Shown: in pieces, positions 5,809 through 17,538 of the stretch
Numbering within the stretch: the stretch's first letter is position 1
How the letters are laid out: the number at the start of each line of letters is the position of its first letter
Virus record (IMG/VR): IMGVR_UViG_2734482775_000003
Coordinates: 1-34,271 of that record
Length of the DNA: 34,271 bases
Source: a virus
Taxonomy: Duplodnaviria; Heunggongvirae; Uroviricota; Caudoviricetes
Direction: 5' to 3' (one strand)
Program-made: the position numbers and the translations under genes
Notes under the pieces: generated by a model
The model's database searches: none
The model's input: only the letters and a program-made list of their open reading frames with translations
Told to the model about the DNA's origin: nothing

Positions 5809-8631
5809 ATGACGGCAGAGTACATCAGGGACTGGCAACAACCGCGCCACGCAGTAGGACGTGAAGGAACGGGGATCCCCGCACCTGAATCCGCACTTTC
5901 CTCCTGGCTGGATGCCTACCGGGCAGAGAACGAGCGCCGCCAGGAAATGGCTGACGCGGCGTTCTCCGCCACACCGCTGGGCAACCTGATTAATAAAAGC
6001 CTGGACGCACAGGAAAAGCAGGACAAAACCATCACACTGGCCAGAGAAGCCAGAAAACAGGCACGCGGTGCGGTGGATGAAGCCATGGCCTCGCTGCGCC
6101 TGCTGCCGTCCTATCTGCGCGATCCGCTTATTCGCCACCTCTCCTTCCTGCGCAAAAAACAGGAAGCCGATCGCCGGAAAGGCAAAAAGAGCTGGCAGGC
6201 GGAACGCTATGCACGCGGAACCCTGCGCAAAATATTGGAACGTCTGGCCCGCACTGACGGACGCTGGCTGACTCCGGGTTATCGCTCCCTTGCCGGACGT
6301 GAACGTCTGGACGATTTACTTTACCTGCCGCAGCTCAACAAACACCAGATACAGACACTGGCCGTCATGACGGCGGCAATGTTCAGCAGCACCTTCGAAA
6401 AACTCTGCGATGGCTTTGGCGCGACCGATGGCGAGCTGACCATGGATATAACGCTGAAGGCGTATCAGCTGCTGGCTCGCATGGCGTTACATCTGCACAC
6501 AGTGCCTCCGCATTATGACGCACTGACAACAGACAAAGACCGGAGGAACGAACCGGACACAGAACTGCTGCCGGGTGCAATCCTTCGCCTGACCTGTGCG
6601 GACTGGTGGAAACGCAAATTGTGGCTTTTACGTTGCGAATGGAGAGAGGAACAACTCCGCGCTGCCTGTCTGGTTTCCAGAAAAACATCCCCCTATCTGA
6701 GTCAGGATGCATTAAGTGAATTTCGCGCACAGCGCGAGAAAACACGCGATTTCCTGAAAAGTTTCATGCTGGAAAATGAAGACGGGTTCACGATTGATCT
6801 CGAGACGGTGTATTACGCAGGTGTCAGTAACCCGGTCCACCGTAAAGCAGAAATGATGGCCACCATGAAGGGACTGGAACTTCTGGCCGAAGCCCGTGGC
6901 GACAAAGCGGTGTTTCTGACTGTCACCTGCCCGTCAAAATACCACGCCACAACAGAGAACGGTCATCCGAATCCCAAATGGAACGGGGCCACCATGCGCG
7001 ACTCCAGCGATTACCTGGTTAACACGTTTTTTGCGGCGGTCCGCAAAAAACTGAACCGCGACGGCCTGCGCTGGTATGGCATCCGCACGGTGGAGCCTCA
7101 CCATGACGGCACCGTGCACTGGCATATGATGGTCTTTGCTCATCCGGAAGAAATCGACAGCATCGTGGCCATCACCCGCGATATTGCCATTCAGGAAGAC
7201 CGCCACGAGCTGGGCAATGATATTACTCCGCGCTTTAAGGTGGAGTACGTCGACGGCTCCAAAGGCACGCCAACCAGCTACATCGCCACCTACATCGGAA
7301 AAAACCTGGACAGCCGCGCCGTGGATGGAATCGACCCGAAAACGGGCAAACCACGCGTTGACCACGAAACCGGAAAATCAATGGCCGAGAGCGTGGAGCG
7401 CGCCATCGGCTGGGCGCGCCTTCATCGGGTCCGCCAGTTCCAGTTCTTTGGCATCCCCTCCCGTCAGGTGTGGCGTGAACTGCGCCGCCTTGCCAGCCAG
7501 ATGGCACGCAACCCGGAAGGCCCGCAACGGCTGAAGGATGACGCAATGGATGCGGTACTCGCTGCCGCTGATGCCGGATGTTTTGCCACCTACATTGAAA
7601 AACAGGGTGGCGTACTTGTTCCGCGCAAGGACTACCTGATTCGCACAGCCTACGACCTCGCAGATGAGCTGAACGATTACGGCGAACAGAGTGTACAGAT
7701 TTACGGGATCTGGTCGCCATTCATCGGGGAATCCTCCCGTGTGTGCACGCATCCGGATAACTGGAAGCTGGTAAGACGTAAACCGGAAGCGGAAGACAGC
7801 GCCCGCGAAAATGGTTTTGACCTTCAGGGCGGCCCTGCCGCCCCTTGGACTCGTGGCAATAACTGTCCCCGTGTACAGGAAACGGACAACAACGGGACAG
7901 AACAGCCGGAAGAACGGCCAGCACCGTGGCCGCAGCTCCCTGACGGCGTTGAAGTGAACGAATGGATGCGCTCACTGAAACGGCACGAACGCCGGGCGCT
8001 GATGCGTTCGCTTCGTGACAAACAGGCAAAAAACAGCAGTGATGAAATGCAGAGCTGGACACAGAGCCGCAAACAGCAGCGGCCTTTGCCTGATAACCAC
8101 GAATTACTCGCTAAAGAATGGCGGGAGTCTGCTGAATCTCTCGGCCTGCATATCGGTGAACAGCAGATGCAGCACCTGTTACGGGGCGGCAGTCTGTACG
8201 TTGACGGCAGCATCATTGCACCGCAGGGATTTGAAATTGTACGCAAACCGGATACCCGCCCGGACAGCCGAATCACGCAGCTCTGGCAACGCCTGAGCCG
8301 TAATCACGGCGTAAGCAGCACGGAGATCCGCCATAACCCGGTCGCCAGCTATCTGGAACAGCTTGGGGTATCAGACCCTGAAGCCGCCGCACGCCTGGCA
8401 TCCACACTTCAGCAAGACCAGAACACCATGAAAACACCCGTTACCGTGCTTTCTGACATGCTGCGCGCCATCCGCGACGCAGAGCACGCACAGAGAATCA
8501 GTGAAACCACTGAACGCGCCCGCCGCAAAGCAGACCTGCTGCGGGGTGGCCTGACCAGTGGAAACAAAAAACAGACAAAAACGGGATTCACAAATCCCGT
8601 AAATGAGCAAAAAACGCGCCGCGATATATGA
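5809..8631 (+). CDS. A: Rolling-circle replication initiation endonuclease, P2 gpA family (HUH relaxase-type)
   Basis: HUH-type motif TVHWHMMVFAH and paired catalytic tyrosines in SYIATYIGKN; position between the early operon and the packaging genes; about 180 aa longer than P2 gpA as I recall it. Confidence 0.9.
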   Translation: MTAEYIRDWQQPRHAVGREGTGIPAPESALSSWLDAYRAENERRQEMADAAFSATPLGNLINKSLDAQEKQDKTITLAREARKQARGAVDEAMASLRLLPSYLRDPLIRHLSFLRKKQEADRRKGKKSWQAERYARGTLRKILERLARTDGRWLTPGYRSLAGRERLDDLLYLPQLNKHQIQTLAVMTAAMFSSTFEKLCDGFGATDGELTMDITLKAYQLLARMALHLHTVPPHYDALTTDKDRRNEPDTELLPGAILRLTCADWWKRKLWLLRCEWREEQLRAACLVSRKTSPYLSQDALSEFRAQREKTRDFLKSFMLENEDGFTIDLETVYYAGVSNPVHRKAEMMATMKGLELLAEARGDKAVFLTVTCPSKYHATTENGHPNPKWNGATMRDSSDYLVNTFFAAVRKKLNRDGLRWYGIRTVEPHHDGTVHWHMMVFAHPEEIDSIVAITRDIAIQEDRHELGNDITPRFKVEYVDGSKGTPTSYIATYIGKNLDSRAVDGIDPKTGKPRVDHETGKSMAESVERAIGWARLHRVRQFQFFGIPSRQVWRELRRLASQMARNPEGPQRLKDDAMDAVLAAADAGCFATYIEKQGGVLVPRKDYLIRTAYDLADELNDYGEQSVQIYGIWSPFIGESSRVCTHPDNWKLVRRKPEAEDSARENGFDLQGGPAAPWTRGNNCPRVQETDNNGTEQPEERPAPWPQLPDGVEVNEWMRSLKRHERRALMRSLRDKQAKNSSDEMQSWTQSRKQQRPLPDNHELLAKEWRESAESLGLHIGEQQMQHLLRGGSLYVDGSIIAPQGFEIVRKPDTRPDSRITQLWQRLSRNHGVSSTEIRHNPVASYLEQLGVSDPEAAARLASTLQQDQNTMKTPVTVLSDMLRAIRDAEHAQRISETTERARRKADLLRGGLTSGNKKQTKTGFTNPVNEQKTRRDI
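8577..8606. repeat. Palindromic 30-bp repeat, copy 1 (inside the gpA 3' end)
   Basis: caaaaACGGGATTcacaAATCCCGTaaa, internal palindrome ACGGGA/TCCCGT. Confidence 0.6.
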
Positions 8632-8649
8632 AGCGCGCATAAAACAGGC

Positions 8650-8680
8650 AAAAACGGGATTTCAGAATCCCGTAAACGAT
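8650..8680. repeat. Palindromic 30-bp repeat, copy 2 (upstream of parM); candidate operator or centromere element
   Basis: Near-identical to copy 1 (caaaaACGGGATTtcagAATCCCGTaaa), about 73 bp centre to centre. Confidence 0.6.
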
Positions 8681-8707
8681 TAATTAATCAACATAAGGAA
8701 AAACGAC

Positions 8708-9667
8708 ATGAAAATTTGTATCGACGACGGCTCCACCAACATCAAGCTGGCATGGACTGAGAACGGCGAACGCCGCAACGCCATCAGCCCGAACAGCTTC
8801 AAGTCGGAATGGTCTGCGCCGTTCTGTGGCACGCAGCCCGCGAACTATATGCTTGATGGCGTGCGCTATGGTTTTGATCCGGTCAGCGATCGCTTTGTCC
8901 AGACGACCGACACGCAATACCAGTACAGCGATGTGAATGTCATTGCCATTCATCACGCGCTGGTCAAATCAGGCATCACGCCACAGGAGGTGGATGTGGT
9001 TGTCACCCTGCCACTGAGCGAGTATTTCGACACAAACGCACAGCCGGACATGACCAACATCAACCGCAAAAAAGCGAACGTTATGCGCCCGGTGGAGTAC
9101 CAGAACGGCGAAGCATTCACTATCCGTAACGTACGGGTTATGCCTGAATCCATTCCGGCTGGCTTTAAGGCACTGGCTGACATGAGTCCGTTTGAATCCC
9201 TGCTGATTGTGGATTTGGGCGGAACCACGCTGGATGTGGCAAAGGTTCAGGGGCAACTGGCAGGTATCAGCCAGATGTTTTGCGATCCACACGTAGGCGT
9301 TTCTCTGATGGCCGATGCCGTACTGTCGGTGATGGCCACTAACGGTATGCGCACCAGTCACCACATCGCCAATACCATTATCGAACATCGCCATGATGAA
9401 GCCTGGCTGCGCCAGCACATCCACAATGACGCGCATTACGCCAGCCTGATGGCGGTTATTCGTGAAAAGGAAGAAACACTGAAACAACGCGTGATCCGCG
9501 CGCTGGCGGGTTTTTCGGGTTACGGGCGGGTGATGGTTGTCGGTGGCGGGGCGGAGATTGTGGCACCCGCTATCCGCGAAGCCTGCGGAGTTAATGCGAC
9601 TTTCATCGCGGACGGGGTGCCACAGTTTGCTCTGGTTAATGGGCTGTACGCAATGGACAAGGAGTAA
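8708..9667 (+). CDS. parM: ParM/StbA-family actin-like segregation ATPase
   Basis: N-terminus MKICIDDGSTNIKLAW, plus YSDVNVIAIHHAL, VMPESIPAGF, LLIVDLGGTTLDV and GYGRVMVVGGGAE, all closely matching plasmid R1 ParM motifs as recalled. Confidence 0.85.
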   Translation: MKICIDDGSTNIKLAWTENGERRNAISPNSFKSEWSAPFCGTQPANYMLDGVRYGFDPVSDRFVQTTDTQYQYSDVNVIAIHHALVKSGITPQEVDVVVTLPLSEYFDTNAQPDMTNINRKKANVMRPVEYQNGEAFTIRNVRVMPESIPAGFKALADMSPFESLLIVDLGGTTLDVAKVQGQLAGISQMFCDPHVGVSLMADAVLSVMATNGMRTSHHIANTIIEHRHDEAWLRQHIHNDAHYASLMAVIREKEETLKQRVIRALAGFSGYGRVMVVGGGAEIVAPAIREACGVNATFIADGVPQFALVNGLYAMDKE

Positions 9668-9671
9668 ACCA

Positions 9672-9986
9672 ATGACGACACCAACCAGACGGATAAGTTT
9701 CTATCTGAAGCCAGTCGCCGTCAATAGTGAACGGGAGGCGTGTAATTACCTCGACAGCCTGCCAGCCTCTGAACGCAGCCGCGCGCAACGCGCGGCCTTT
9801 CTGGCCGGGCTGGCACTCATAAAACGCGATCCTGCATTTGCCTATTGGTTGGCCGAATGGCCGGAAGAAGGAGCTGCGCCAGCCAAGAATAATATTCAGA
9901 GTAAATATGCCAGCGCACCTGCCACCGGAAGCAATCACAGCACTAGCGAGATAAGAAAGAACATTCAGTCATTTTTCCCAGAGTGA
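9672..9986 (+). CDS. parR: ParR/StbB-family centromere-binding adaptor
   Basis: N-terminal region RRISFYLKPV...DSLPASERSRAQRAAFLAGLAL parallels R1 ParR (DSIPQGERSRLNRAALTAGLAL); AAGGAG RBS; directly follows parM as in par operons. Confidence 0.75.
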   Translation: MTTPTRRISFYLKPVAVNSEREACNYLDSLPASERSRAQRAAFLAGLALIKRDPAFAYWLAEWPEEGAAPAKNNIQSKYASAPATGSNHSTSEIRKNIQSFFPE

Positions 9987-10005
9987 AAACAGGAGAGGAG
10001 CATCT

Positions 10006-10437
10006 ATGGCAACTATCCCCAAAAAATGGTTACAACGCAAAATTGCAGACCTTGAATCGTGTCGTGAAGACATCCCGTTTGGCCTTGATGAAAACGATCA
10101 CAATATGTTAATCGCACTGAAAATCGCACTCACATCGCTGGAAGCGAAACCTGTTGCATGGACTGATGATGAGGAACTGCGTGATGTCAAGCAGTATGGT
10201 TTCGGTGAGATATTTCAGTGTCCGCCAGATAAATACGCGGACCCGCGACGTGTTATCCCTATGTATCGAGAGCCGCCAGCGCCAGCAGTACCAGATGGAC
10301 TGGTTAGAGCGGTGCGTTTCTATGAACAGGTAAAGCGTGAGAATCCGCCAGTCGAAACTGGAGTATGGAAAGACGCTATTGACTGGGTGACCAAAGAGGC
10401 TTGCCAAGCTGTAGACATTGGCATCAAAGGAGAGTGA
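10006..10437 (+). CDS. Hypothetical protein, co-operonic with parMR
   Basis: Strong RBS AGGAGAGGAG before the ATG; 143 aa; no motif recognised. Confidence 0.55.
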   Translation: MATIPKKWLQRKIADLESCREDIPFGLDENDHNMLIALKIALTSLEAKPVAWTDDEELRDVKQYGFGEIFQCPPDKYADPRRVIPMYREPPAPAVPDGLVRAVRFYEQVKRENPPVETGVWKDAIDWVTKEACQAVDIGIKGE

Positions 10438-10438
10438 T

Positions 10439-10702
10439 ATGGCAACTTTGACAAAAAAAGAACAAGCATGGTTGAGCGAATTACAGGACGTTCTTGATCG
10501 CTGTCCATCACCGAAAAAAATTGGTTTTTACACCATTGGCGATAAAAACATTTACCTGTATGACCTACGCCGCATGGATGAAATCATGGAGGCTCTTGAT
10601 AATCGTTCGTCAATGGATTGGTGTGTTGCTGTCCATGATATGAATGCAGGGTTTGATGAAAAGATTTTGTTCCCCTCATCAGTTGAAAGCACAGCAGGAT
10701 AA
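10439..10702 (+). CDS. Hypothetical protein, co-operonic with parMR
   Basis: ATG 1 bp after the upstream stop; 87 aa; followed by a terminator. Confidence 0.5.
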   Translation: MATLTKKEQAWLSELQDVLDRCPSPKKIGFYTIGDKNIYLYDLRRMDEIMEALDNRSSMDWCVAVHDMNAGFDEKILFPSSVESTAG

Positions 10703-10736
10703 GGACCCAGCCAATATACACAACCTATAAAACACT

Positions 10737-10763
10737 AAAGCGCCTCAGGGGCGCTTTTTGTTT
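10737..10763 (+). terminator. Intrinsic terminator closing the parMR-orf143-orf87 operon
   Basis: Hairpin GCGCC-tcagg-GGCGC followed by TTTTTGTTT. Confidence 0.7.
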
Positions 10764-10789
10764 GCACAAAAGTGCACAAATTTGCACAA
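10763..10789. repeat. Three direct TGCACAA repeats at 10-bp phasing
   Basis: tTTGCACAAaaGTGCACAAatTTGCACAAttttttt; helical-turn spacing suggests an array of protein-binding sites. Confidence 0.5.
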
Positions 10790-11288
10790 TTTTTTTGAAC
10801 GACTTTTTACCCTTCCGGCCCGCATGGCGGCTGGATCCGTCAAGGATCCGTGCGTGCACAAAAAAACGCGCTTTTTCTGCGCGCAGGTGACGGGGGAACA
10901 GCCCGCGTTTCAGGGGGTAAACAGCATTCCCTGAACGATGTCGCAGCGACACAACGGAATGGCTGTCTTTCTCTCGCTGAGCGTGAAAAATACGTGAGGG
11001 CTTTTGATTTGATGGGGTGACTGATAAGGCCGTCAAAATCGCACTGAGGCGACGAGAACATGCAGTCAGCACGGCGGGATTGCGTAAGAGCCTGACCGTC
11101 GATGATGACAATAAGCTGGAAGGCGTCGTGAAATTATCTGATTGATACAGGAGCTGGAGAGTCGGGGCATAAATTTTTTATGCCCCGGCGAAGCAGCAGA
11201 CAAGCGAAGCGCGTCAGCGATACGGCACCTTGCCGACCATACTTCATAAGTGCAAAATACGAGCAAAGAAATCAATGGAGGCTGTCTT

Positions 11289-11813
11289 ATGGTCATTAAT
11301 TACAAGCAGTTAAGAGAAAAACGGGAGCAGGTAAAGGAGAGCTTTCGCCGCAATGAAGATCTGACCCCGCTTGTACGCCTTGCCCAGGGCATTGTTGATG
11401 CTTATGAAATCTCGCTGGAGCTGCCATCACAGACCTGGACAGATAGCGACGGTAATCGCCAGCATTACGTTTCATGTGGACTGGAAGCAGCCGAAGGATT
11501 TCGCAGAATGCCTTTATCCCAGATCCCTGCCGCTACCCCCAAAGCACGAGGCAGCAATGATGAGCGAAAACTGACTTTTAGTATTGAAACGGTGGTTGAC
11601 GACACACCTGGCGAAGTCGCGTTCGTACACACTCCTGTTTCGATCGCAATGTATAACGATGAAATACAGGTTCGCGTTAATAATAATATCGTGCCACTTA
11701 AAGAAGGTAATTCACCCTACACCACCGTTTGTGAAGCCATTCAATATTACGTTCTCTCTGAAATTGATAATCTCAAGCCTGACGGCACCCAGAAAATGGT
11801 TCAACTCTGGTAA
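11289..11813 (+). CDS. Hypothetical protein (about 174 aa), orphan accessory gene between hotspot and portal
   Basis: ATG at 11289 in frame with track ORF 11250..11813; followed by a strong terminator; no motif recognised. Confidence 0.5.
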   Translation: MVINYKQLREKREQVKESFRRNEDLTPLVRLAQGIVDAYEISLELPSQTWTDSDGNRQHYVSCGLEAAEGFRRMPLSQIPAATPKARGSNDERKLTFSIETVVDDTPGEVAFVHTPVSIAMYNDEIQVRVNNNIVPLKEGNSPYTTVCEAIQYYVLSEIDNLKPDGTQKMVQLW

Positions 11814-11845
11814 AAAGGACAGCCCCATCACGGGGCTGTTTTTTC
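11813..11845. terminator. Bidirectional intrinsic terminator between orf175 and portal Q
   Basis: A-run, hairpin ACAGCCCC-atca-GGGGCTGT, T6 run; overlaps the Q 3' end. Confidence 0.7.
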
Positions 11846-12874
11846 ATCAAGAAGAGCATAAGAGTTAAAACGGATCACCTCTTCGCCAAGCCAGTCATTG
11901 ATGTGCTTCATAGCCTCCATGACGGGCATCAGCTCGTTAATTGCGTAAACCCGCGCGGCCTTCTCCACATCACCAAACGCACTTTTTTCGCCCGGCATCG
12001 CCCCCATCAGTTGCGGCGGAACGCGGTGCGCAGCCAGCACATCATCACGGGATGCCGCCTTAACATTCATGAACTCATCTTTTGCGGTGATCTGCTGGAA
12101 CGGCAAAATTTGCACCCCCTCTTTGCCCCCGTTGGGCGCATGAATGAGCACGTTTTTAAACGCACCACCACCACGTGCCCCCTGTAGCGTTTCTTTCAGG
12201 GAGTCCATGCTTTCGCGGTTTACCTGCGCTGCACCGATGTAGATGATGCACCCGGCGTGGGATCCGTTGTCGTAGTACAGTTTTCTGAACATGTCCGCCG
12301 AATGAGACAGGCTGGCCGAGAGTAATGCGCCAAGATATTCCGGCATGCCGTAGATTTCCTGGTTAATGTCCGGATTCATCAGGTGGCACACTTTGCCAGG
12401 GCGAAACTGGAACGCGTCCTTGCCATCATGCACATACCACCATGATTCAAGATCGCTTCCGCGTCGCATGTATTTCGCCAGGGCGTGCCGTAATTTAAGT
12501 GGTTCGCCGAGCATATTGCTTCGAAGCTCAAGGAATGCGTTACCGAACACAAACCAGTCCAGCGCCAGCGCCGAGAAATCCTGCCGGGAAAGCAGCGGGT
12601 GCGGGATGTAGCAACCGAGTAATACATTGCGCTTAAAGTAAAGCGCAGACTGATGCCAGGACGTTTGCCGGGCAGCTCTTGCCAGACCGTACCAGTCCAC
12701 CGGGGTTTCATACCACCGCCCGTTATCAGCACAGTACATATTGTCCAGCAGGTCATGCCCGGTCAGGCGATAAGGACCATCAAATGTGAATGCACTGAGC
12801 GATGATTCTTTCCTGAGCGCATCAGCGAGATCAATGCGTGAACTCATGCGCACTTTTTTATTTTTTCTGCTCAT
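11828..12874 (-). CDS. Q: Portal (capsid vertex) protein, P2 gpQ family
   Basis: 348 aa; position and orientation (leftward, adjacent to terminase ATPase) as in P2; recognised by overall similarity to P2 gpQ. Confidence 0.85.
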   Translation of the reverse strand: MSRKNKKVRMSSRIDLADALRKESSLSAFTFDGPYRLTGHDLLDNMYCADNGRWYETPVDWYGLARAARQTSWHQSALYFKRNVLLGCYIPHPLLSRQDFSALALDWFVFGNAFLELRSNMLGEPLKLRHALAKYMRRGSDLESWWYVHDGKDAFQFRPGKVCHLMNPDINQEIYGMPEYLGALLSASLSHSADMFRKLYYDNGSHAGCIIYIGAAQVNRESMDSLKETLQGARGGGAFKNVLIHAPNGGKEGVQILPFQQITAKDEFMNVKAASRDDVLAAHRVPPQLMGAMPGEKSAFGDVEKAARVYAINELMPVMEAMKHINDWLGEEVIRFNSYALLDEKTAP

Positions 12875-14625
12875 CAGAACTCCATAACCGTGAAACGCTC
12901 GTTTTCTCCTTCGCCGCCAATCGGTTCGTTAATGACAGCAAGCATGGTTGCCCACGCAAGGTCGCCGTGGCTGATCCCCCTCGCGCGGTCCGTTTCGTAA
13001 GTGATAAAGCCGCCCGGTGTTTTCACCTTACGCACGGCGTTAAAGGCCGCGACCAGCTCGCGTTCGGCGCGATCGTATTCCCACCGCCCGGCACGCATTA
13101 TTTGCAGCATTTTCAGTACCAGCGACCGTTTTGATGACAGCGTGAAGGTGTACGGAATAGCAGCAGGGAAAAACCGTTTCACTATCTGATAAACAGCCTC
13201 CCCGTTCCCGCCCGTCACATCAATGCCGATGTGTTCCACGTTGTAGCGATACGTGAACTCTTCAATGACTCTGGCCTGTTCTTCAAACTCCAGCCCCTGA
13301 ACGCGTCGCGTCTCCACCGTTCGAAAACGGCCACCAGGAACAGCCGGAGGAACCACCACGGACACAGCGCCGCTGTCGCCGTTGCCGCTGCTGCCGTTTG
13401 CGTCATACCCAATCCATACCGGACGATTCCCCATCGGGCGGGGAGCAAAAGGTTTCCAGTCTTTCCAGTCGTCGTACCCGTCAACGCCGCAGCCAATCAG
13501 GATATTCAGGTTAAATGCCGATTCCCCTTCGCGGACAAACTCACACATATAGAGATTGAGAAACTCGTCTTCGGTGTTTTCATCACGAATTTCGTCGATA
13601 TCGGTGTGTTTCCAGCCGTGATTAACCACATCTTCCAGCGTGACAATTTGCCGCCACGTCCGGTCAGGACAGATAAGCCCGTTATGCAGCGTTTTCCAGT
13701 CCACAGAAAAACGCTGGCGTTTATGCGTGGCCTTTTTCTCATTCCAGCGGTCGCCGTTCCAGTAGGCGTATGCCTCGTGCGTTTCGGTGGATGGCGTGGA
13801 GAAGTAGGTGCGCCGCAGTCCGCTGAGGGTTGCCATCGCGCCAGCCACCTTGCGCAGTTCAGCAAAGCGACTGACCCAGAAAAATTCATCAAAATAAAAA
13901 TTGCCCGTATAGGACTGTGCCGACGCAGCAGAAGTGCCGAGAAAATGCAGCTCTGCGCCGTTTGAGAGGATGATTTTATCGCCCCCTTTCAGCTCCACAT
14001 CAACTTCAGCCGCGGCCTTCTGAATAATGCTTTTAAACTGGAACGCCTGACGACGCGACGCAGACAAAAAAATCTGGTTACGCTGGTAAGGTTGCGCCAC
14101 ATCGTCACGCAGCGCCATCAGCAGTGCTTCCTGTGCAAAATACCAGGTCGCCCCAATCTGTCGGGATTTCAGGATCATCCTGTTACGTATCCCGGCTTCC
14201 CTGCAAAGGGTAAGGGAGTCAAACCAGCCACGCTGATGCCACTCCAGCCTGCTGATGATTTTTTCCCGCAGTGCGGCAATCTGTTCCGGCGTGAAATGAT
14301 TTTTGAGTTTTTTCGCCCGGCCTTTCTTTCCTGCGGCCATCACATCCGGCTGGCCATCATGCAGCTTTTTAAGCTGCCGGGTCAGCAGGTCTATTTCCTT
14401 AAAGTCACCGCCTGTTTTATTCTGTTTTTCAGTAAGCTGGATGAGGCGCGCATCGATGGACTGCGTGACACGCTGCACGGGTGGCGTTTCATCCCACTGG
14501 TCACGTTTTTTCCACGCATAAATCGTGTTCGGGTTTATTCCCATCAGACGTGATATTTCTGCGGGCGGATAACCCTGCCAGTAAAGTTGCCGCGCACGCT
14601 GGCGCACAAAAGCGTCCTGAATCAT
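12874..14625 (-). CDS. P: Terminase large (ATPase) subunit, P2 gpP family
   Basis: 583 aa, overlaps the Q start; divergent from the O-N-M capsid operon as in P2. Confidence 0.9.
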   Translation of the reverse strand: MIQDAFVRQRARQLYWQGYPPAEISRLMGINPNTIYAWKKRDQWDETPPVQRVTQSIDARLIQLTEKQNKTGGDFKEIDLLTRQLKKLHDGQPDVMAAGKKGRAKKLKNHFTPEQIAALREKIISRLEWHQRGWFDSLTLCREAGIRNRMILKSRQIGATWYFAQEALLMALRDDVAQPYQRNQIFLSASRRQAFQFKSIIQKAAAEVDVELKGGDKIILSNGAELHFLGTSAASAQSYTGNFYFDEFFWVSRFAELRKVAGAMATLSGLRRTYFSTPSTETHEAYAYWNGDRWNEKKATHKRQRFSVDWKTLHNGLICPDRTWRQIVTLEDVVNHGWKHTDIDEIRDENTEDEFLNLYMCEFVREGESAFNLNILIGCGVDGYDDWKDWKPFAPRPMGNRPVWIGYDANGSSGNGDSGAVSVVVPPAVPGGRFRTVETRRVQGLEFEEQARVIEEFTYRYNVEHIGIDVTGGNGEAVYQIVKRFFPAAIPYTFTLSSKRSLVLKMLQIMRAGRWEYDRAERELVAAFNAVRKVKTPGGFITYETDRARGISHGDLAWATMLAVINEPIGGEGENERFTVMEF

Positions 14626-16737: not shown

Positions 16738-17538
16738 ATGATTACTCCTGCACAGCAACACTGGCAGAACGTGATGGCACAGCGCGCAGGCCGGGCGAAT
16801 GAAGGCGTGGACCACGCCGCGCGTACCGCGCATGAAGAGGTGCTGTATCGTCTGCGTCTGGCACAGGCCCGGCTTAAGGGCGTACAGGCCAGAAGCGCGA
16901 AAGCCGCCATCAAAAAAGAGTTGTTGCCGGACTTTTCCGGCTGGATTGAGGGAACGCTGGAGGCTGACGGTGGGCAGCAGGATGAAGTGATTGCCACGCT
17001 GATGGTGTGGGCGATTGACTGCGGCGATCTTCCGCTGGCGTTGCGTATTGGTGCGTATGTGGTCCGTCATAACCTCATTATGCCGGATAACTTTGGCCGT
17101 ACTGCTGCCACAGTGCTGACCGAAGAAATCTGCAACCCGGTACTGACGCAGGCCGGGGCGGATGTCGACGCGGATTTGTCCGCCTTTATCGAACCACTGG
17201 ACACCCTCCGGAAGATTGTCACCGACCAGGACATGCCGGACGAAGTACGCGCCAAATTATGCAAGGCGTGCGCCTTTGCCCGTCGTGGTCTGACCGATGC
17301 AGACAACATGGCCTTATCACTGAAGCTGCTGCGCGAAGCGATGCACCTGAACCCGAACGCAGGTGTGAAACGCGAGATTGCAACCCTTTCCCGCGCCCTG
17401 AAAAAAGCCGATTCCGCAGCCGAACCAGAAGACGCCAGCGCACAGCAGGCGCAGGACGAAAGCAGCAAAAGTAAAAAGACAACGCGGAAGCCTGCAACAC
17501 GAAAAACCACCGCGACGCAGAAGGCGAAGCGCGGTTAA
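16738..17538 (+). CDS. M: Terminase small (endonuclease) subunit, P2 gpM family
   Basis: 266 aa directly after the capsid gene; basic C-terminal tail. Confidence 0.85.
   Translation: MITPAQQHWQNVMAQRAGRANEGVDHAARTAHEEVLYRLRLAQARLKGVQARSAKAAIKKELLPDFSGWIEGTLEADGGQQDEVIATLMVWAIDCGDLPLALRIGAYVVRHNLIMPDNFGRTAATVLTEEICNPVLTQAGADVDADLSAFIEPLDTLRKIVTDQDMPDEVRAKLCKACAFARRGLTDADNMALSLKLLREAMHLNPNAGVKREIATLSRALKKADSAAEPEDASAQQAQDESSKSKKTTRKPATRKTTATQKAKRG

Follow-up and report, generated by a model that had tools for sequence, protein, structure and literature searches.

Gene layout and sequence elements of the region

The window, the 34,271-nucleotide stretch of IMG/VR record IMGVR_UViG_2734482775_000003 analysed here, is a P88-like (Xuanwuvirus, P2-family) prophage. 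Its gene layout places the block under study between ParMR-plus-cargo genes and the portal gene, which is on the opposite strand. The upstream cargo operon (ParM/StbB and small ORFs) is closed by an intrinsic terminator on the plus strand at 10737-10757, with a 9-bp stem followed by TTGTTT. This terminator is the left edge of the block, and similarity to relatives begins immediately beyond it at 10763, exactly at the first TGCAC. On the other side, the minus strand encodes a gpQ-like portal (11828-12874; Phage_portal, PF04860) and a gpP-like large terminase (12874-14625; Terminase_6N/6C and Terminase_5; PF06056, PF03237, PF17289) with an N-terminal HTH (HTH_23 at residues 6-63). A gpM-like small terminase subunit is encoded on the plus strand at 16738-17538 (PF05944 Phage_term_smal, E 7e-37). 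The portal and the large terminase are the enzymes expected to act on a cos site here.

Three copies of TGCACAA with exact 10-bp spacing (10763-10769, 10773-10779 and 10783-10789) and a T7 tract make up the left boundary (10763-10798), a candidate terminase recognition array. A fourth copy at 10855-10861 is joined to an A-tract (10855-10868), so that one 99-bp interval holds four of the six TGCACAA copies that occur in the 34 kb window. Between the triplet and the fourth copy lies a GC-rich dyad, CCGGCC..GGCTGG, together with the direct repeat GGATCCGT (10812-10852; repeat copies at 10833-10840 and 10844-10851). A short GC hairpin, ACGCGC/GCGCGT (10866-10884), which is terminator-like on the minus strand, abuts the predicted cohesive end. 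The latter, the cosN equivalent GGTGACGGGGGAACAGCCC, was placed at 10886-10904 on the plus strand by aligning it without gaps to the cohesive ends annotated in P2 and 186; its 19-nt length and nick positions are predictions from this alignment, and the overhang could be of another length. The right flank (10905-10928, GCGTTTCAGGGGGTAAA and following bases) is common to an Escherichia-type satellite, and similarity stops after it. No IHF site was found by a consensus search of the window. The triplet, the direct repeat, a G-rich motif and a hairpin further right had all been listed in the earlier note, and each was found at most 1 nt from where it had been placed; the G-rich motif GGTGACGGGGGAACAGC is present and begins at 10886, where the note had 10887.

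The next segment (10929-11162), reaching toward the portal end, forms a P88-lineage-specific non-coding spacer that has no similarity to other lineages. It is followed by the perfect hairpin just mentioned (11163-11187), an inverted repeat whose 11-nt arms CGGGGCATAAA/TTTATGCCCCG (11163-11173 and 11177-11187) are 100% complementary around a 3-nt loop. Only one of its 25 positions varies, in <5% of 66 sequences, and at two loci (L044 and L056) the arms are 21 bp long. P88 and P88_4B11 have this hairpin 26 nt past the portal stop codon, so that it probably marked the end of the ancestral portal operon, as the counterpart of tQ (P2) and tW (186), which are annotated at the same relative place. 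Its terminator activity is uncertain because it has no U-tract. Sequence comparison showed a conserved tail (11188-11216) that ends with the stop codon of the ancestral portal gene (TCA, 11214-11216), and similarity to P88 breaks at ~11217.

From there a moron (11217-11839, plus strand), consisting of orf175 and its own bidirectional terminator, replaces the last few portal codons, and the portal C-terminus reads ...LLDEKTAP in the window versus ...LLDTQPTS in P88_4B11. The orf175 gene (11289-11813; RBS GGAGG; terminator 11819-11839) belongs to PHROG 5091 (phrog_5091; unknown function). At 13 loci with portal identity of at least 97% and both positions visible, as in the window, the portal ends at +946, not at ~+341. 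P88, P88_4B11 and most of the relatives with a complete block have no orf175, and the block therefore pre-dates it; orf175 is a later insertion, outside the cos site. The earlier note had treated ~550 bp as a possible packaging site. This stands for about 165 bp (10763-10928), which is the cos portion, and not for 10929-11216, the P88-lineage spacer and hairpin; 10929-11288 as a whole is spacer, old post-portal hairpin and the start of the inserted moron.

Evidence for a cos region at 10763-10928

P2-family cos has been placed between gpA and gpQ (PMC9122126). The annotated cohesive ends of P2 and 186 lie 186-195 bp past the portal stop codon, beside the old/tin or orf97 accessory region. According to Ziermann & Calendar 1990, as quoted in PMC9594776 and PMC5694545, cos of P2, 186 and P4 has 19-nt 5' cohesive ends and a 55-bp conserved core. 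The earlier note had pointed to a resemblance between the G-rich motif and the P2/186 end, and the P2 sequence given there, GGCGAGGCGGGGAAAGCAC, agrees exactly with cosL as annotated in NC_001895. GGTGACGGGGGAACAGCCC is identical to it at 13 of 19 positions without gaps. By itself this is at chance level: sites matching the P2/186 end at 13/19 number 17 in the window versus 15.5 per shuffle. A direct search of the window for GGCGAGGCGGGGAAAGCAC with up to 3 mismatches gave no match. An nhmmer profile of P2, 186 and P4 cos, run with all filters off, did not report the region and had its best match (E 0.45) elsewhere, the profile being built from three sequences only and thus of low sensitivity. 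Because the 19-mer match alone is non-significant and the profile fails, the case for cos rests on architecture and comparative data, and homology is argued from architecture and a bridging relative.

The architecture is closely alike. Measured from the start of the 19-mer, TGCA occurs at -123/-113/-103/-31 in the window and at -123/-111/-101/-29 in P2; in 186 and P4 the offsets are -124/-111/-101, then -35 and -29. The composite layout of core match, three phased TGCA at -130 to -115 and a fourth at -45 to -25, with offsets defined from P2, 186 and P4 only, occurs once in the window, at 10886, versus 0.0033 times per dinucleotide shuffle. The fourth TGCACAA with its A-tract, which is at least 90% conserved, is the equivalent of TGCATTAAAA just left of the P2/186/P4 cohesive end (offset -31 versus -29 in P2). 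Dyads of other sequence stand in the same place as that of the window in 186 (CGCCAG-AG-CTGGCG), P4 (CCGCGCC..GGCGCGG), phiT5282H (CCGCC..GGCGG) and 3LV2017 (CGCCAG-CA-CTGGCG). P2 has an analogue of the 10866-10884 hairpin at the same place (CCGCCC..GGGCGG followed by TTTTAA); this hairpin is absent from some lineages. The bridging relative is Klebsiella phage 3LV2017, whose TGCACAA-type repeats are 82% identical to the window over 54 bp and which carries GGCGAGGCGGGGGAGCAAG at the equivalent spot, the first 12 bases being those of the P2 cohesive end. As judged from these sequences, it would link the 19-mer of the window to the P2 end.

The arrangement is widely conserved. The core, which is invariant among the relatives, is carried by 144 loci; at 130 of these a portal gene on the opposite strand ends +209 to +347 after it, or +915 to +946 after it where a moron is inserted. 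The exact repeat 23-mer was found at 21 loci (20 contigs, ~18 genomes) in a one-genome-per-species collection, mostly from Enterobacterales and about a dozen genera. Loci were fetched by exact repeat or core match, and the conservation of the fetched motif in the profile is therefore partly by construction; all loci fetched by the 23-mer alone that extend far enough keep the core, 18 of 19 with GGTGACGGGGG[A/G]ACAG and the remaining one, from Klebsiella (L023), with the 3LV2017-type GGCGAGGCGGGGGAGTAAG. Among 5426 complete E. coli genomes, 1142 (about a fifth) have the block.

Five portal-less elements match the phages over a stretch that opens at the first TGCAC and closes at about +40, with no similarity past it. 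In the Escherichia element (sat_Esch, L030) the match is to the window type and extends to about GGGGGTAAAT; each of the other satellites resembles its own phage lineage, of the phiT5282H-like type, as far as ACGCGACGG.G. One of the satellites is a circularly assembled element of 12.2 kb that encodes an Ogr/Delta protein, AlpA, a Toprim primase and a P4-type integrase, and has no terminase or portal. We infer that such elements depend on the terminase of a helper. The C-terminal part of P4 Psu was not found beside cos in the portal-less elements. The sharing mirrors P2 and P4, for which cos is the region of homology between the two (PMC9122126); here it is the TGCACAA elements that helper phage and satellites share.

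Two phage records that look virion-derived have indels in the 19-mer. P88_4B11 (a virion-derived assembly) has a 5-nt deletion at 10902 and phage Chuche (an environmental isolate, taken as virion-derived) a 7-nt deletion at 10894. Both are inside the predicted 19-mer, and they are the only indels across 454 bp among good-quality phage records; records 503458 and 500465-2, with scattered 1-nt indels that are mostly in homopolymers and probably sequencing errors, were excluded. This confinement to the 19-mer may be an indirect sign of physical ends. None of the phage records in the collection terminates in the core. Two other candidate ends were rejected. The linear record of P88_4B11 starts at window position 10809, 77 bp upstream, and its nucleotide 1 was set relative to reference genomes (PMC6969025). 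A MAG contig end at GGTGACGGGGGGACAG then AGATGTGTA was judged a Nextera mosaic-end k-mer artefact.

Position, the P2/186/P4 architecture, the bridging relative and the satellites all support a cos/packaging site between the accessory hotspot and Q, as the earlier note had proposed, and 10763-10928 is very probably the cos region of this P88-like (Xuanwuvirus), P2-family temperate phage. It is an expected and ordinary feature of the family, in the previously unannotated version of the P88-type lineage.

Other readings of the stretch

A structured non-coding RNA, or a long leader regulating orf175, had been the alternative in the earlier note, and we give it a small chance. On the plus strand, the RNA of 10926-11216 has a better fold than its shuffled versions (z = -2.54; 1 of 200 as good), many substitutions are compatible with G-U pairing, and the hairpin at 11163-11187 is near-invariant. 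The minus-strand fold, however, has z = -0.57, and the covariation term is only -1.51 kcal/mol with 1 of 74 predicted pairs compensatory, in sequences that are ~93% identical and thus give little power. The covariance-model scan suggested for the region found no Rfam match at E ≤ 1 over the 3 kb from 9500 to 12500 on both strands, and there is no sigma-70-like promoter from the cargo terminator to 11250. A partner of orf175 would also have to fit the absence of that insertion from P88, P88_4B11 and most block-bearing relatives. The RNA claim was thus not borne out.

Small genes are annotated in the stretch in several phage records, GenBank entries marking a 129-bp CDS (a 42-aa product) and other small CDSs as 'hypothetical proteins'. 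A coding stretch has very little probability in our view. The 42-codon ORF (11017-11145) is unbroken in 59 of 66 distinct sequences, but its variable sites are spread 21/18/17 over the codon positions, an evenness in which selection on a protein leaves no sign. The other ORFs are unbroken in 0-14 of the 66: those on the minus strand in 0-2, except for the 76-aa ORF (11066-11296, scored over 11066-11230), which is unbroken in 14. Pfam and PHROG searches gave no match here, and the annotations conflict between records in strand and position. The absence of any credible ORF, as first noticed from the sequence, is therefore upheld.

Two further readings concern the repeats themselves. They could be a parC-like centromere for StbB/ParR of the upstream ParM/StbA-StbB system (8708-9986), since ParM (PF06406/PF21523) and StbB (PF10784) are ~0.8-2 kb upstream of them and phased short direct repeats are typical of type II centromeres such as R1 parC. 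However, of the 77 loci for which 4 kb or more is available upstream, 36 are without both parM and parR, and 27 of these 36 still carry the strict triple repeat. The repeats also occur without ParMR in Klebsiella 3LV2017, Enterobacter phiT5282H and the satellites, their equivalent in P2, 186 and P4, a TGCAT triplet with the same offsets, likewise stands in genomes that lack ParMR, and variable cargo genes and a terminator intervene between repeats and parMR. We regard this reading as scarcely credible, and rejected a type II ParMRC centromere on the co-occurrence counts.

Equally remote is an operator, promoter or DnaA-box-like replication element unrelated to packaging: by inspection ATTTGCACA fits the DnaA-box consensus TTWTNCACA at 8 of 9 positions and the P2 TGCAT triplet sits just upstream of the old-tin transcript starts, but TGCAT of P2, 186 and P4 does not fit a DnaA box, the distance from triplet to cohesive end is constant whatever genes stand on the left, the triplet is kept in satellites, the neighbouring cargo operon reads toward the repeats and ends in a terminator, and no promoter-like site was found in the repeat region.

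Predicted packaging and relation to known cos sites

For the cos region, the sequence suggests the following course. After replication, the terminase (the gpM-like product of 16738-17538 with the gpP-like product of 12874-14625) would recognise 10763-10928 and make staggered nicks either side of GGTGACGGGGGAACAGCCC. This would yield 5'-protruding cohesive ends, and the genome would then be packaged through the adjacent portal. The triplet, whose repeats are one helical turn apart, with its T-tract, and the fourth TGCACAA with its A-tract, are likely the protein-recognition and bending elements. Cutting by the terminase at this site to make sticky ends is most likely; binding of the TGCAC repeats by one of its subunits is what we infer.

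More tentatively, and with less than an even chance, the phased TGCA[C/T] array and the fourth repeat may serve the P2-family terminase as an address label specific to the lineage. If so, the label could be read by the gpM subunit or by the HTH at the N-terminus of gpP, and two label-and-core types would coexist in Enterobacterales, TGCAT with GGCGAGGCGGGGAAAGCAC (P2, 186, P4) and TGCACAA with GGTGACGGGGGAACAGCCC (P88, phiT5282H). Klebsiella 3LV2017-type phages, with TGCACAA-type repeats and a P2-like core, are an exception to the two types. Each type would have its cognate satellites, the cos type deciding which helper a satellite parasitises, and the TGCACAA type would include a satellite family carrying its own P2-type capsid gene.

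The main value of the assignment is in annotation, and it leaves the current understanding of P2-family packaging unchanged. Public phage records leave the block blank or fill it with small 'hypothetical proteins', cos is unmentioned in the P88 genome paper (PMC5285337), and the 16-mer GGTGACGGGGGAACAG was absent from the literature searched, shorter substrings occurring only in unrelated papers. Once the block is marked as cos, P88-type genomes have their natural ends fixed and the defence/cargo hotspot has a defined right border. It also becomes clear why there is room between cos and portal for morons such as orf175. The 165-bp cassette, with a specificity unlike that of P2/P4, could serve cosmid or transducing-particle design and could help to predict helper-satellite compatibility.

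Among known systems, lambda cos (cosQ-cosN-cosB, with R sites and an IHF site) is like the window in having a nicking site flanked by recognition repeats and bent A/T tracts. It differs in its 12-nt overhang, in having no sequence relationship and in its IHF site, for which the window has no consensus. Judged from the packaging polarities of lambda and P2, the repeats in the two systems would also stand on opposite sides with respect to the end that is packaged first. Ralstonia phage phiRSA1, of a distant host and lineage, is a P2-family phage whose experimentally determined end, 5'-GGTGAGGCGGGGTCCAAC, begins with GGTGAGGCGGGG (PMC5694545). Like that of the window, this end starts with GGTGA and then a G-run, and in phiRSA1 too extra ORFs are possible between cosL and the gpQ homologue, as with orf175.

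Nearer to the window are 3LV2017 (Reginaelenavirus) and the Enterobacter phage phiT5282H (Novemvirus), in both of which the cos region is unannotated. They share the TGCACAA-type triplet and the fourth repeat at the same place relative to the portal; both are without ParMR, and their flanks past about +25 and the central dyad are lineage-specific. The core of phiT5282H is identical to that of the window, GGTGACGGGGGAACAGCCC, whereas that of 3LV2017 is P2-like. P2, 186 and P4 differ from the window in their repeat unit, TGCAT versus TGCAC(AA), and the distance from cos to the portal end is ~190 bp in P2 versus ~330 bp in the window lineage. The 19-mer of the window is unlike that of P2 at 6 of 19 positions, and its ends are predicted from sequence whereas those of P2 and 186 are annotated. 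The GC dyad has a counterpart in 186 and P4 and is not evident in P2. As in the window, cos of P2, 186 and P4 lies between an accessory hotspot downstream of gene A (in 186, the corresponding region) and the portal 3' end, with a phased TGCA triplet at about -123 to -101, a fourth TGCA with an A-tract at about -30, and a G-rich 19-mer that starts with GG.GA and continues with a G-run and then CGCG. It is likewise common to cognate satellites and served by the same terminase/portal families (PF05944, PF06056/PF03237/PF17289).

Gene neighbourhood and repeats of the stretch

The repeat-rich stretch at 10764-11288 very probably contains a cos site, as the earlier note had proposed. It lies in a P88-type prophage (genus Xuanwuvirus, P2 family), and phage records matched it by BLAST at 91-98% identity (P88, P88_4B11, 520873, PhiR44_2 and others). 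Upstream of the stretch are a gpA-type replication gene (5809-8631), ParM/StbA (8708-9667), StbB/ParR (9675-9986) and two small cargo ORFs ending at 10702; the terminator of the cargo operon (10737-10757) is located directly left of the first TGCAC. Downstream lies orf175 (11289-11813), followed on the minus strand by the portal gene (11828-12874) and the large terminase gene (gpP homologue, 12874-14625), whose product has an N-terminal Terminase_5/HTH_23 domain at residues 6-63. The gpO scaffold and gpN capsid genes come next, then the gpM small terminase gene (16738-17538) and gpL.

The ParM/StbA and StbB/ParR pair (8708-9986) is complete and directly 3' of the replication gene, with a 76-bp gap (8632-8707) preceding parM. 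Among the 77 related loci whose upstream sequence reaches 4 kb or more, 41 carry the pair, which hints at cargo or at a stage of plasmid-like maintenance.

All four sequence features described in the earlier note were present, within 1 nt of the positions given there. Three TGCACAA copies at 10-bp phasing start at 10763, 10773 and 10783; a direct repeat, GGATCCGT, has copies at 10833 and 10844; the G-rich motif starts at 10886; and a perfect hairpin with 11-bp arms occupies 11163-11187. A fourth TGCACAA is found at 10855; the whole 34-kb window has six copies, and 99 bp hold these four. The predicted cohesive end, hereafter the core, is the G-rich 19-mer GGTGACGGGGGAACAGCCC (10886-10904).

Extent of the conserved block and the orf175 insertion

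Similarity to relatives begins exactly at the first TGCAC, right after the cargo terminator. In P88, P88_4B11 and most relatives, the block equivalent to 10763-11216 directly adjoins the portal stop codon. The window and a minority of relatives have an insertion of about 600 bp after 11217, which carries orf175 with a terminator of its own and takes the place of the final portal codons (...LLDEKTAP in the window versus ...LLDTQPTS in P88_4B11), and the inserted terminator (11819-11839) now comes after the portal gene. The insertion (11217-11839) is a self-contained moron that separates the portal gene from the older post-portal hairpin, and was also found in PhiR44_2, 569R5, 705R2 and about 13 IMG/VR loci. 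Since most relatives have the block directly at the portal stop, orf175 came later, and the block therefore cannot have evolved as the orf175 leader that the earlier note offered as an alternative. orf175 matches PHROG 5091 but no Pfam family; it has an RBS, and the terminator is bidirectional.

The hairpin at 11163-11187 is nearly invariant and lies 26 nt past the portal stop in P88 and P88_4B11, where P2 and 186 have the annotated terminators tQ and tW. It is probably an end-of-operon hairpin, though without a U-tract. In the window its 11-bp arms are extended by flanking GCTG/CAGC pairing. In two IMG/VR loci (L044 and L056, corresponding to window 11151-11195) it is a perfect palindrome with 21-bp arms, GCTGCTTCGCCGGGGCATAAA TTT TTTATGCCCCGGCGAAGCAGC, unusually long and likewise lacking a U-tract.

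The segment 10929-11162 is conserved within the P88 lineage only and, judged by this pattern, would best be described as a spacer. A structured RNA here retains a small probability. The plus strand of 10926-11216 folded better than shuffles (z = -2.54), but the minus strand did not (z = -0.57), and Rfam gave no match. The alignment fold had a covariation term of -1.51 kcal/mol with 1 of 74 pairs compensatory; the residual probability is kept because sequences about 93% identical leave this test little power.

Conservation in phages and satellites

The TGCACAA triplet of the window also occurs in Klebsiella phage 3LV2017, which has GGCGAGGCGGGGGAGCAAG at the corresponding position, the first 12 bases being those of the P2 end. 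Enterobacter phage phiT5282H has a core identical to that of the window. In these two phages, neither of which has the element annotated, its distance to the end of the portal gene is 250-270 bp, and ParM/ParR is absent from both. In a collection with one genome per species, the exact repeat 23-mer was found at 21 loci, most of them in Enterobacterales (about a dozen genera), with a core about 113 bp downstream in every locus extending far enough. The core was GGTGACGGGGG[A/G]ACAG in 18 of 19 and the 3LV2017 type, GGCGAGGCGGGGGAGTAAG, in a Klebsiella locus. The exact core 21-mer occurred in at least 120 viral contigs; loci were fetched by one motif or the other, so independent evidence comes only from conservation of the motif not used for fetching. 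In 130 of 144 loci the opposite-strand portal gene ends at +209 to +347 past the core, or at +915 to +946 with the insertion. The block is carried by 1142 of 5426 complete E. coli genomes.

Over the 454-bp block, 25-31 substitutions separate the window from each of seven good-quality phage records. Indels in these records number only two: P88_4B11 (locus L002, positions about 79-96) lacks 5 nt at 10902 and phage Chuche (L157) lacks 7 nt at 10894, both within the predicted 19-mer. P88_4B11 was assembled from virion DNA, as presumably was Chuche, an environmental isolate. The deletions are probably end-joining errors, and their placement would fit contig ends having been joined at true termini, which is suggestive rather than proof. 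The P88_4B11 record begins 77 bp upstream, at a position set by comparison with a reference genome, and for that reason this start was rejected as a physical end. In the RefSeq records of phages 503458 (L156) and 500465-2 (L155), 1-nt indels are dispersed over the block, most of them within homopolymers, and the portal annotation is broken up, which points to sequencing errors left uncorrected.

Five loci had no portal gene despite ample downstream sequence (L022 with L025 on contig QAKE01000006.1, L019, L027, L030 and L014). On QAKE01000006.1 (12,723 bp) the cos-like element is present twice, 12,207 bp apart, so the contig represents a circular satellite of 12.2 kb. It encodes a Toprim primase, a P4-type integrase, a second tyrosine recombinase, AlpA and an Ogr/Delta zinc-finger protein, and this complete example lacks terminase, gpO and gpL. 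When aligned, satellite and phage sequences are similar from the first TGCAC to about 20-40 bp past the 19-mer and unrelated on both sides; because of these limits, the functional cos can be placed at roughly 10763-10928. The right flank of the Escherichia satellite is of the window type (GCGTTTCAGGGGGTAAA), and that of the other satellites, ACGCGACGG, is common to phiT5282H and several other phage lineages. This sharing is the situation of P2 and P4, in which cos is the region common to both elements (PMC9122126).

A P2-family major capsid gene (PF05125) of their own, with 36-40% identity to gpN of the window, is present in four of the five portal-less elements; in the fifth, L014, the fetched sequence ends 1.3 kb past cos. 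No sequence resembling P4 Psu was detected adjoining cos in these elements. They look like a satellite family with its own capsid protein in place of a Sid-type external scaffold. A targeted literature search found no description of such satellites, and they are perhaps worth a separate look.

Promoter, operator or DnaA-box elements would leave unexplained the fixed distance to the core across differing neighbours. The repeats as the parC centromere of ParM/ParR were rejected: 36 of the 77 loci lack parM/parR, 27 of these 36 keep the strict triple repeat, and the array also occurs in satellites, P2, 186 and P4. A coding stretch was rejected as well, in line with the earlier view that it holds no credible ORF, for the minus-strand ORFs are hardly ever intact across 66 distinct relatives, and a 42-codon plus-strand ORF annotated in several records has variable sites of 21/18/17 by codon position and neither a Pfam nor a PHROG match.

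Comparison with the cos regions of P2, 186 and P4

The sequence elements, with their order, location, limits of conservation and occurrence in satellites, have been shown; how the site works is inferred from them. If the stretch is a cos site, the gpM/gpP terminase would bind the phased TGCAC array. The repeats are one turn apart and flanked by A/T tracts, which suggests bent DNA with several subunits along one face. The enzyme would nick the two strands at positions 19 nt apart around 10886-10904 and then package the genome. The N-terminal HTH of the gpP homologue is a candidate reader of the repeats, alongside the gpM-like small subunit.

The core is identical at 13 of 19 positions to the P2 end, for which the earlier note gave the correct sequence. 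Matches this good are about as frequent as by chance (17 in the window versus 15.5 per shuffle), and the window region was not picked up by a profile HMM made from the cos regions of P2, 186 and P4. A composite rule drawn from these three alone (a core match plus a phased TGCA triplet at -130 to -115 and a further TGCA at -45 to -25) picked out one place in the window, 10886, against 0.0033 per shuffled window.

Record ends were joined and all sequences anchored ungapped on the first base of the cohesive end. TGCA then lies at -123/-113/-103/-31 in the window, P88 and phiT5282H, and at -123/-111/-101/-29 in P2. 186 and P4 have a phased TGCAT triplet at -124/-111/-101 and proximal copies at -35 and -29, with an extra TGCA at -120 in 186 and -75 in P4. 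The triplet is followed by a GC-rich dyad (about -85 to -55) whose sequence differs lineage by lineage, then by the fourth TGCA with an A-tract, a short GC hairpin, the G-rich 19-mer and CGCG. The annotated cohesive ends of P2 and 186 are located 186-195 bp past the portal genes and adjoin accessory genes. The stretch very probably holds an unannotated lineage variant of this well-known element.
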